A DNA stretch of 64,000 nt, taken from NCBI GenBank assembly GCA_018267315.1, contig JAFDYS010000009.1, forward strand, positions 110,786-174,785. The letters are read 5' to 3'. The notes under the pieces were generated by a model. That model saw only the letters and a list, made by a program, of their open reading frames with translations. It searched no databases and had not been told where the DNA came from. Below are positions 58,883 through 60,821 of the stretch, piece after piece (position 1 is the first letter of the stretch; each line of letters opens with the position of its first letter). The position numbers and the translations under genes are program-made. The DNA comes from Bacteroidota bacterium (lineage in GTDB: Bacteria > Bacteroidota > Bacteroidia > Chitinophagales > UBA10324).

Positions 58883-59475
58883 GAAAATTTCTTCCCCTCA
58901 TCTTGTTTCTATTCGCCTCCTGCAGCAAGGATGTGACACAAATAACCATAGGCGATCCGTTCAATTCCATTTCCAACACCGCTTCGATCAAAATGGTCAG
59001 CGTTCCTTACACTTCAGCGAATTTGGGAATTGATCTAAGAACACCGGGTGATGACAACGCCAATGAACTGCGCGAAGAGTTCGGTGCCGAAGTGCCCGTC
59101 CCTTCCCCCGTCACCGATTCACTTTCTGATGATTTTGAAATTGAATGGCAGCAGGTGAAAGCTAAGTTTATTGCCGCCGGAGTTTTCAGCAAGCCGCCCG
59201 ACATCGGCATCATTGACGGCAACATCATTAACAACAGCAATGATTGCGTATGGCTTTGGAACAGCGGGTTCGGAACCGGCAACAGCAATCACATTGCATT
59301 TGATGACGGGCGCAGTGTGATTGGAATTTCCAACGGGCAACCGGTGTATTCAAATACCCTCCTGCCACTGACGAAAGGAAAACGATATTACCTGATGCTG
59401 TGGGCATGGAATGATGATGCAACCCGCATTGAATTTTCAAGTAAGCTAATTATCATCTACATCAGGGCGCTGTGA
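58879..59475 (+). CDS. Lipoprotein (hypothetical)
   Basis: It has a lipobox-like 'LILFLFASCSKD'. An ATGA overlap links it to the upstream gene, and a GTGA overlap links it to the downstream payload gene. Confidence 0.5.
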   Translation: MRKFLPLILFLFASCSKDVTQITIGDPFNSISNTASIKMVSVPYTSANLGIDLRTPGDDNANELREEFGAEVPVPSPVTDSLSDDFEIEWQQVKAKFIAAGVFSKPPDIGIIDGNIINNSNDCVWLWNSGFGTGNSNHIAFDDGRSVIGISNGQPVYSNTLLPLTKGKRYYLMLWAWNDDATRIEFSSKLIIIYIRAL

Positions 59476-60821
59476 AAAGCCACACTGTTCACCGTAAATC
59501 AAGCCGGCGCATGCTGCGCCACGGGAGAAACGGAACACATCCGTTCTTCAGGGGACAACACAGCGCAACTCAGTTTGATGCTTCAATGGAATCAGAGGCG
59601 GATCACATAGCAGACCGGATTACCAGAACAGACCATTATGCGGGGCCCGGTTCATTCTTCCGCCCCGCCTCTTTAGCGCAAATACCACCGGCCGCCCATG
59701 GTGTGAACGGCCCCGTGTTACGAAAAGCGCAGAGCCCAGCAAGTGGCGGCGACGGTCCGGTTACCACATTTCTCGGTCAGCAATCTTCAGGAATTCCGTT
59801 GCCTGAGTCAACCCGGAAATTCTTTGAGCCGCGATTGGGTTATGATTTCTCTTCCGTGAGAATTCACCGGAATGAAGAAGCGGCACATTCGGCACAGCGG
59901 ATGAATGCACTGGCCTACACGGTGGGAAACGATATCGTCTTCAACGTAAATCAGTTTTCACCGGAAACAGAAAACGGGAAGAAGCTGCTGGCACATGAAC
60001 TTGTTCATGTTGTTCAGCAACAGCCCGGCCGCCTGCAGCGGAAAGAAATTCCGCCAGAACACCGCGATACGGAAAAAATGCTGAAGTCGGCAAAACTGTT
60101 TTGGGATGATTTTCATGAAACATTTGCTTCTTATGTTGATGCCGGTAAAATTTCCGGAACGGGCTTCGACTCCGCGCAACAAGAGGCCATTCATGTTGAT
60201 GTTTCTGGCAACGGGGATGTTGACATCACTTTCGGGCAGGCCTTTCTTGATGAAAAGAAACCGTTGCTGAGAAAAGCAATGATCAAAGCAGAAATCATAG
60301 ATAAACATCTTTCATACGACCGCTTTGAAGATCTCGCTGTTGATCCCACCCATTCACGCTTGCAGCAAATCAATCCGCCATACCGCGCCGGTATGTATTG
60401 CCAATTGAATTGTCCTGCTACAGCAGCATCGCTTTCGGAATATCTTCAAACAGGCACTGTGAACAAAGCATACTGCAACCCGGCTCTTGAGCAAGGCAAA
60501 GGATATGGTTTTGATGTATCAATGAATACGATGAGTACCGCCACGGATTGGAAGCAGGCATTCGCTGCCATGAAGAAACTGCTGCAGAAGCATGGTGAGT
60601 TTGTAGTGGTGGAAGCACGGCGGAGCGCAAGGCAACAACAGGAAAACAATCTTACGGAATACCACTACTTCACTGTGGTGAATGTGAAGGGGACGTTGTT
60701 TGCCATTGATGCGTTCGGCGGCGGTATTGTAAGCGGTGATGTGGACGCATACATTACACGCCTTAAGGCCACTTACTACGGAATGATGCAGGGAATTTTC
60801 AGGGTGAAACTGGTCCTGTAG
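59472..60821 (+). CDS. DUF4157-domain putative CIS payload 2 with a C-terminal papain-fold (Cys-His-Asp) toxin-like domain
   Basis: The leader is 'ESEADHIADRITR'. The DUF4157 core is 'LPESTRKFFEPRLGYDFSSVRIH...LLAHELVHVVQQ' (HExxH at aa 175-179). The C-terminus has 'YCQLNCPATAASL' (Cys314), 'EYHYFTVVNV' (His398) and 'FAIDAFGG' (Asp413). Confidence 0.7.
   Translation: MKSHTVHRKSSRRMLRHGRNGTHPFFRGQHSATQFDASMESEADHIADRITRTDHYAGPGSFFRPASLAQIPPAAHGVNGPVLRKAQSPASGGDGPVTTFLGQQSSGIPLPESTRKFFEPRLGYDFSSVRIHRNEEAAHSAQRMNALAYTVGNDIVFNVNQFSPETENGKKLLAHELVHVVQQQPGRLQRKEIPPEHRDTEKMLKSAKLFWDDFHETFASYVDAGKISGTGFDSAQQEAIHVDVSGNGDVDITFGQAFLDEKKPLLRKAMIKAEIIDKHLSYDRFEDLAVDPTHSRLQQINPPYRAGMYCQLNCPATAASLSEYLQTGTVNKAYCNPALEQGKGYGFDVSMNTMSTATDWKQAFAAMKKLLQKHGEFVVVEARRSARQQQENNLTEYHYFTVVNVKGTLFAIDAFGGGIVSGDVDAYITRLKATYYGMMQGIFRVKLVL

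Follow-up and report, generated by a model that had tools for sequence, protein, structure and literature searches.

A predicted papain-like Cys-His-Asp domain at the C-terminus of a DUF4157 protein encoded beside an extracellular contractile injection system of a Chitinophagales bacterium

The question raised by the locus analysed here is which activity might be encoded by the last plus-strand gene of a cluster for an extracellular contractile injection system (eCIS). The locus is located in a stretch of 64,000 nucleotides (nt) from a Bacteroidota bacterium (Chitinophagales; assembly GCA_018267315.1, contig JAFDYS010000009.1, positions 110,786 to 174,785), hereafter referred to as the window, and the gene (59472..60821, + strand, GTG start) encodes a DUF4157-class eCIS-associated effector of 449 amino acids (aa). 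In the established architecture of eCIS-associated toxins (EATs), whose genes lie at the 3' end of eCIS operons, DUF4157 is N-terminal and the toxin C-terminal; the DUF4157 class of EATs is covered by Geller et al. 2021 (PMC8213781) and Danov et al. 2024 (PMC11297309), and according to the latter, no second domain is annotated in 983 of the 1130 eCIS toxins predicted to contain DUF4157. A reading of the window made from the sequence alone (the sequence-only reading) had proposed that the DUF4157 core of this protein is followed by a papain-fold, toxin-like Cys-His-Asp domain. The analysis reported below supports this proposal at the level of fold and superfamily, and provides one such unannotated C-terminus with a fold, a predicted catalytic triad and a nearest family. 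The protein appears to be a DUF4157-class EAT with a new papain-like domain family, whose loading, injection and toxicity we infer.

The papain-like domain and its family

The domain covers approximately aa 280-449 (60309..60818, + strand), and its recognition relies on an AlphaFold2 model, on Foldseek comparisons and on a family of 85 protein clusters. The predicted nucleophile, Cys314 (TGT, 60411-60413), belongs to the triplet Asn313-Cys314-Pro315 (60408..60416, + strand), embedded in the stretch YCQLNCPATAASL (aa 309-321), and is the first residue of a predicted helix spanning aa 314-327. The predicted general base, His398 (60663..60665, + strand), lies in the motif EYHYFTVVNV (aa 396-405) on a strand formed by aa 397-405, and the predicted third residue of the triad, Asp413 (60708..60710, + strand), is located in FAIDAFGG (aa 410-417) at the end of the strand formed by aa 408-413. 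The positions of the open reading frame (ORF), of the HELVH motif of DUF4157 and of these three residues had been given by the sequence-only reading, and every one of them was reproduced by script.

In order to define the family, an exhaustive HMMER search was performed with a profile built from five relatives against 1.84 billion cluster representatives (clusters at 50% identity). The C-terminal ~170 aa retrieved 85 clusters at E<=1e-3, 52 of which at E<=1e-10. Word-index protein searches returned five proteins with the domain as query and nine with a 47-sequence profile, and the precomputed Pfam annotation of these word-index homologues is empty. Residues were counted in a profile-guided alignment of all hits. 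Cys314 (78/78), Pro315 (78/78) and His398 (86/86) are invariant in this alignment, and Asp413 is present in 85 of 87 sequences, the remaining two having Glu. Other conserved columns correspond to Asn313 (70/79), Ala318 (76/78), Gly328 (75/78), Phe400 (84/86) and Arg384 (82/84); the latter (60621..60623, + strand), near-invariant and placed outside the triad, is a candidate substrate-binding residue. The occurrence of a Cys, a His and an Asp in this order in a single sequence would be trivial, and it goes beyond chance because the three residues are invariant at a mean column identity of only 28% in the 47-sequence alignment; even sequences that are only about 25% identical to the window domain keep the triad and the Pro.

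Two further cysteines, Cys310 (60399..60401, + strand) and Cys335 (60474-60476), flank the catalytic helix. They are not invariant and show a perfect covariation, both being Cys in 36 sequences and neither in 12, with no mixed case. This pattern suggests that they might form a disulfide or play some other paired structural role.

The structure of the domain was predicted with AlphaFold2, using a 180-aa query and the 47-sequence alignment. The resulting model is confident from residue ~11 onward, with a predicted local distance difference test (pLDDT) of 95, reaching about 98 in the block around Cys314, and a predicted template-modelling (pTM) score of 0.89; a previous model based on a five-sequence alignment was discarded (pLDDT 51). 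In the domain numbering of the model, Cys314 (residue 45) opens a 14-residue helix, His398 lies near the start of one strand (128-136), and Asp413 is the final residue of the strand that follows (139-144). The modelled arrangement, in which the Cys begins a helix and consecutive strands bear the His and the Asp, is that of a textbook papain fold.

When this model was compared with the PDB by Foldseek, the list of matches was composed almost entirely of papain-like enzymes: OspI, AvrPphB, staphopain B, Josephins, PaJOS, M48/USP/UCH deubiquitinases, SseI, MCF and vasohibin, as well as the papain-like toxin/immunity pair 9L5U. In the BFVD collection of predicted viral structures, the three best matches (E=2.8e-4 to 9.8e-4, probability 0.99-1.00, template-modelling (TM) score 0.46-0.49) are all annotated as 'Papain fold toxin 1, glutamine deamidase' (PF15644). 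The similarity of the modelled domain to papain-like proteins is at the superfamily level only. In a PDB sequence search, the five-sequence profile matched TIM barrels of de novo design, owing to a 'KKxGD..V.EA' stretch that recurs in them; these matches were rejected as spurious, the single stretches being all non-significant.

The Pfam searches point in the same direction. The window domain matches PF15644 (Gln_amidase) with 15.4 bits (E=0.042), the gathering score of the family being 24.1 bits, and shows a sub-threshold match to Peptidase_C12 (E=0.024) over its His-Asp hairpin; no NCBIfam model matches the domain. PF15644 is the commonest Pfam match in the family, being found in 6 of the 47 members, with a best E of 2.5e-4, estimated at about 23 bits and hence below the cutoff. 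About half of the other top-listed weak matches in the 47 members belong to families of the papain clan (Tox-PL-2, Josephin, Peptidase_C39_2, arylamine N-acetyltransferase and Transglut_core2). Judged by these scores, the domain is only remotely related to PF15644 and constitutes an unmodelled family of its own, rather than being a member of PF15644. In a published classification of papain-like enzymes, PF15644 falls beside OspI in one cluster, and its proteins are described as toxins or releasing peptidases (PMC10318531).

The sequence-only reading is hence largely borne out. A non-enzymatic fold or a triad lost in homologues would have spoken against it; the model and the Foldseek comparisons give instead a papain-like enzyme fold, and the Cys and the His are invariant. 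The search against profile hidden Markov models that it had proposed returned PF15644 as the commonest match, even if below threshold. As for the kinship with Tox-PL/glutamine deamidase-like domains, PF15644 is indeed the nearest family by both sequence and structure, while membership in it is not supported by the scores.

The remaining part of the protein has the layout of an EAT. The N-terminal leader (aa 1-108; 59472..59795, + strand) has no Pfam domain and is presumed to be a loading signal (a role inferred from PMC11297309); it contains an ExEAD motif (SMESEADHIADRI), recognised by eye in the translations and present also in the 870-aa DUF4157 protein of the same locus (EYEREADEVAERV). 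The DUF4157/eCIS_core domain (PF13699; aa 109-186; 59796..60029, + strand) is recognised with E=7.5e-31 and 106.6 bits versus a cutoff of 22, and its HExxH motif is intact (HELVH, aa 175-179, nt 59994-60008). The linker (aa 187-279; 60030..60308, + strand) matches no family and is conserved only by close homologues. Neither a signal peptide nor a peptidoglycan-binding module was found in the 449 aa, on the basis of the translation and Pfam. The start codon is ambiguous: an alternative ATG at 59511 (Met14), used by most other gene calls, would give a protein of 436 aa, in which the triad is numbered C301/H385/D400. The 449-aa GTG form is identical to MBS1656941.1 and MBX7140340.1 at NCBI, from metagenome-assembled genomes (MAGs) of Chitinophagales/Bacteroidota, named 'DUF4157 domain-containing protein' [Chitinophagales bacterium]; the exact protein is present in 168 blocks of the assembly collection.

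Occurrence of the domain and the question of an immunity gene

A variety of architectures has been found among the 85 clusters. In about 26 of them an N-terminal DUF4157 is present and the papain-like domain is the last module; about 11 have an 'LQRxAGNxAV' leader without DUF4157, and many are stand-alone proteins of 150-170 aa. In P0077, an RHS-repeat/YD-shell protein, the domain is located at the extreme C-terminus, i.e., in the classical toxin slot. In P0021, P0023 and P0041 the order is different, the leader being followed by the papain-like domain and then by DUF4157. In the second of these (1373 aa, locus L016, 4977-9098), DUF4157 is present twice after the leader and the papain-like domain, and the C-terminus is formed by an Endonuclea_NS_2 nuclease; its gene lies directly 3' of a contractile injection system (CIS) tape-measure gene and is followed by a short ORF at the end of the contig. 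P0023 could be either a multi-toxin cargo or a protein processed by its own papain-like domain. With its presence on an Rhs protein, in Proteobacteria and in high-GC (guanine-cytosine) bacteria, the domain behaves like a shuffled toxin cassette.

Five genome loci were retrieved by a search with the five-sequence alignment. The matches in Methylococcaceae, in Alphaproteobacteria and in an unclassified MAG are full genes for DUF4157 plus the domain, placed beside other DUF4157 genes. In a Niabella sp. MAG (L010, 7844-8474; the same sequence in L002-L004, 9745-10375), the domain carries NCPATAA and is preceded by an in-frame stop; DUF4157 is missing, and a short upstream ORF retains a leader-like 'QPKLSISP' motif. 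What is left has the look of a decayed remnant closing an eCIS-like operon, although 57 blocks of the assembly collection list the called fragment (124 aa). In locus L001 (9361-10843), an eCIS_core ORF (9361-10056) overlaps the domain ORF (10001-10843) in a different frame, and the pair is probably a single DUF4157-plus-domain gene, broken up by a frameshift or by an error of assembly; no eCIS gene lies near it, the surroundings being genes for ABC (ATP-binding cassette) transporters and oxidoreductases. In locus L007, two further DUF4157 proteins (580 and 923 aa; 8612-13521, - strand) are encoded convergently to the homologue, the 580-aa one showing a weak cytidine-deaminase match, and genes for transposases of the insertion sequence (IS) type lie upstream of the homologue; the impression is of an array in which DUF4157 cargo genes can be exchanged.

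The genes adjacent to the domain bear on whether an immunity protein accompanies it. In the window, no immunity-type ORF of at least 20 aa fits into the 10-nt gap (60822-60831) between the effector gene and the convergent gene that follows. The latter (60832..63042, - strand), which the sequence-only reading had called PBP1A, is that of a class A penicillin-binding protein (PBP), as indicated by Transgly (E=7.9e-57) and Transpeptidase (E=1.4e-21); the locus ends with this gene, which is outside the eCIS. The downstream gene is convergent also in L001, L007, L009, L012 (the Rhs locus) and L014, and unrelated in L005, L006 and L008; a gene coding for a protein with PG_binding and CHAP domains follows the homologous toxin gene in L008. 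The Rhs homologue is followed by an ORF of 124 aa (L012, 3510-3884); this candidate for an immunity gene was rejected, being Arg-rich high-GC noise overlapping the convergent gene. No conserved downstream immunity gene, and no neighbour common to the loci examined, was found. The absence of a small immunity-like ORF that had been noticed in the window therefore holds in the homologous loci examined, and the survey of such loci suggested at that time returned no conserved immunity gene.

Missing immunity genes are known for many eCIS toxins (PMC8213781). The absence had been explained by a payload inactive in the producer cell or directed at eukaryotic cells, and this explanation may be right; a missing immunity gene does not by itself show a eukaryotic target. 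That such a gene is consistently lacking, also next to the Rhs homologue, hints at a target that is maybe not bacterial.

The eCIS locus around the gene

The structural genes of the eCIS lie upstream of the effector gene (32987..52346, + strand) and were recognised by Pfam-type domain matches. Their order is AAA ATPase, Pvc16_N, sheath, two gp19 tubes, CIS_tube, spike (Phage_GPD/Phage_base_V), gp25 and Baseplate_J, followed by two large unannotated proteins and by the CIS tape measure (CIS_TMP; 50901-52346, + strand; E=1.3e-103). The core gene set is complete and entirely on the + strand. The two large proteins (779 and 913 aa; 45815-50898), encoded between the Baseplate_J and tape-measure genes and without any Pfam match, are candidates for baseplate or tail-fibre parts deciding the target cell. 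Directly 3' of the tape-measure gene, a 261-aa protein with an N-terminal PG_binding_1 is encoded (52366-53151), which may be a lysis or release enzyme of the particle.

The effector gene is the second DUF4157 gene of the locus, as the sequence-only reading had stated. The first (53161..55773, + strand) encodes a protein of 870 aa (PF13699, E=9.2e-30), whose C-terminal ~530 aa match no Pfam or NCBIfam model; in the fetched loci, its best relative is a DUF4157 plus PG_binding protein of 1501 aa from L008 (E=1.8e-83), and the 870-aa protein is likely a further cargo that lacks annotation. The two DUF4157 genes flank four others (55818-59475), joined by tiny or overlapping junctions and coding for proteins of envelope type. 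The first and the third (480 aa) of these proteins have a signal peptide, the second is membrane-anchored and has CarboxypepD_reg, and the fourth is a lipoprotein of 198 aa, the stop codon of which overlaps the GTG start of the effector gene. No homologue of these four proteins was found in the other fetched loci, and no NCBIfam model matches them; a phmmer search of four upstream window genes against all the ORFs of L001-L010 returned only DUF4157 paralogues. The effector gene is the last on the + strand before the convergent PBP gene, and the junctions preceding it are tiny or overlapping.

In another part of the window, three proteins (18571-19971; 21364-24015, - strand; 25563-28682) end with a Por_Secre_tail, i.e., a sorting signal of the type IX secretion system, one of them having MopE-type metal-binding repeats and one a sortilin/Vps10 domain; these tails fit Bacteroidota.

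Proposed activity, alternatives and known systems

On the whole, the product of the 59472..60821 gene is probably a thiol enzyme loaded into the eCIS particle, injected, and acting through Cys314, His398 and Asp413 either to deamidate Gln/Asn or to cleave a peptide bond. According to this proposal, the protein would be loaded into the particle, whose contraction would inject it into the target cell. There, Cys314 would act as nucleophile, activated by His398, which in turn would be oriented by Asp413 on the neighbouring strand, and the enzyme would attack an amide in a target protein, with formation of an acyl-thioester. The amide might belong to the side chain of Gln/Asn (deamidation, known from OspI and implied by the name of PF15644) or to a peptide bond (proteolysis, as in AvrPphB/YopT), and either reaction would inactivate the target protein. 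The two reactions can be given about equal weight, with a slight leaning toward the deamidase.

Several observations speak against this proposal. Solved structures offer no close match, the best PDB hit of Foldseek having E=2.9e-3 and the query-normalised TM never exceeding 0.44, and the PDB sequence search with the 47-sequence profile gives nothing below E=0.8. The PF15644 gathering score is never reached by the window domain or by the 47 members, and the oxyanion Gln of OspI, two positions after the Asp, is replaced by Phe/Tyr in the papain-like family. About half of the family is short and stand-alone or located away from eCIS genes, as in L005, which implies that the status of eCIS cargo does not hold for every member; in the window itself, the four envelope-protein genes stand between the effector gene and the eCIS core.

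It might be supposed that the domain is a processing or releasing peptidase, cutting its own cargo protein or another DUF4157 cargo such as the 870-aa protein, the payloads being released or matured during loading or after injection. PF15644-type domains are indeed said to act 'as a releasing peptidase or a poison' (PMC10318531), and in P0021, P0023 and P0041 the domain is N-terminal to DUF4157, with the Endonuclea_NS_2 toxin at the C-terminus of P0023. However, the window protein, the ~26 DUF4157 fusions and P0077 all end with the domain, and nothing is left downstream to be released; moreover, many members stand alone, and most eCIS loci are devoid of the domain, so that it cannot be a general maturation factor. 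Such a role is therefore unlikely for the window protein.

The NlpC/P60 and CHAP enzymes are papain-like Cys-His enzymes as well, and a cell-wall hydrolase of either type could act on the peptidoglycan of the target, or on that of the producer during the release of the particle. Weak Foldseek matches to a DUF1460 protein, to a Gordonia phage endolysin and to a phage peptidoglycan hydrolase, together with the PG_binding_1 protein of the window locus and the PG_binding plus CHAP gene of L008, agree with this idea, which nonetheless appears quite improbable: in Pfam, no match to NlpC_P60 or CHAP is obtained for any of the 47 members with the cutoff relaxed to E<=1, the best neighbours by structure and sequence are of intracellular deamidase, protease and deubiquitinase types, and the window protein has no signal peptide or peptidoglycan-binding module. 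Finally, the top Foldseek match in the PDB is YopQ, which is not known to be an enzyme, and this might suggest a catalytically dead scaffold with a structural or binding role, whose residues are kept for folding. An invariant triad is typical of active enzymes, pseudoenzymes usually losing at least one of its residues, and the conservation of Cys, His and Asp at the canonical positions, along with the invariant Pro, down to ~25% identity makes this last explanation hardly credible.

The reading as an injected thiol enzyme can be extended, more speculatively, by assuming that with the window protein a separate family of injected thiol enzymes is founded (~85 clusters, comprising eCIS cargo, Rhs and stand-alone forms) for which immunity is needless since the substrate is only eukaryotic, e.g., a small GTPase or part of the ubiquitin/E2 system. 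This extension is conceivable but doubtful; if it were true, the Chitinophagales eCIS would be an anti-eukaryote weapon, directed at a protist, a nematode or a fungus, and a new substrate specificity would be added. Apart from this, the toxin class was already known and papain-like toxins were expected; the understanding of eCIS and of papain-like toxins is unchanged. The result is a solid annotation, and the profile of the ~85 clusters could become a new Pfam-type model.

Among the known systems, the closest in organization are the DUF4157-class EATs, with which the window protein shares the succession of leader, DUF4157 with HExxH, linker and C-terminal enzymatic domain (here predicted), as well as the location at the 3' end of an eCIS operon and the absence of an adjacent immunity gene. 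One of them, EAT14 of Chitinophaga rupis (DUF4157 + LysM + Transglut_prok), kills both E. coli and yeast (PMC8213781, PMC11297309). The two proteins are alike in carrying a thiol-enzyme module, a transglutaminase in EAT14 and a predicted papain-like enzyme in the window; they differ in that the window protein is devoid of LysM and its C-terminal domain belongs to a different family, for which the libraries have no model. With PF15644 the domain, as modelled, shares the papain fold, the Cys-His-Asp triad and the condition of C-terminal module of polymorphic toxins (Tox-PL1), whereas its score (15.4 bits) remains below the curated threshold (24.1 bits).

OspI, an effector of the Shigella type III secretion system (T3SS) that deamidates Gln100 of Ubc13 (PDB 3B21, 4IP3), resembles the window domain in its papain-like fold (Foldseek probability 0.97, TM 0.43). 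The triad of OspI is Cys62/His145/Asp160, with Asn61 before the Cys and the oxyanion Gln162 at Asp+2 (PMC3636029); the spacing is 84/15 in the window domain and 83/15 in OspI, and an Asn precedes the Cys in both. On the other hand, the identity is only 15-16%, no OspI chain was found among the PDB sequences at E<=10 with the 47-sequence profile, and position 415 (Asp+2), unlike Gln162 of OspI, is Phe in 49, Tyr in 25 and Gln in 2 of 87 sequences. In addition, OspI is delivered by a T3SS and not by an eCIS, and its disulfide is Cys62-Cys65, whereas the Cys310/Cys335 pair is specific to the family of the window protein.

The proteases of the AvrPphB/YopT type (peptidase C58) have, like the modelled window domain, the Cys at the N-terminus of a helix and the His and Asp on a beta hairpin, and they share with it and with the 9L5U toxin the context of injected effectors or toxins, a context presumed for the window protein. 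In Foldseek, AvrPphB (1UKF) was matched with probability 0.97 and the 9L5U pair with probability 0.60. All of them differ from the window domain by a low TM (0.32) and by the lack of any sequence similarity, and the 9L5U toxin also by having a cognate immunity protein, in contrast with the window family, for which no conserved immunity gene was found.

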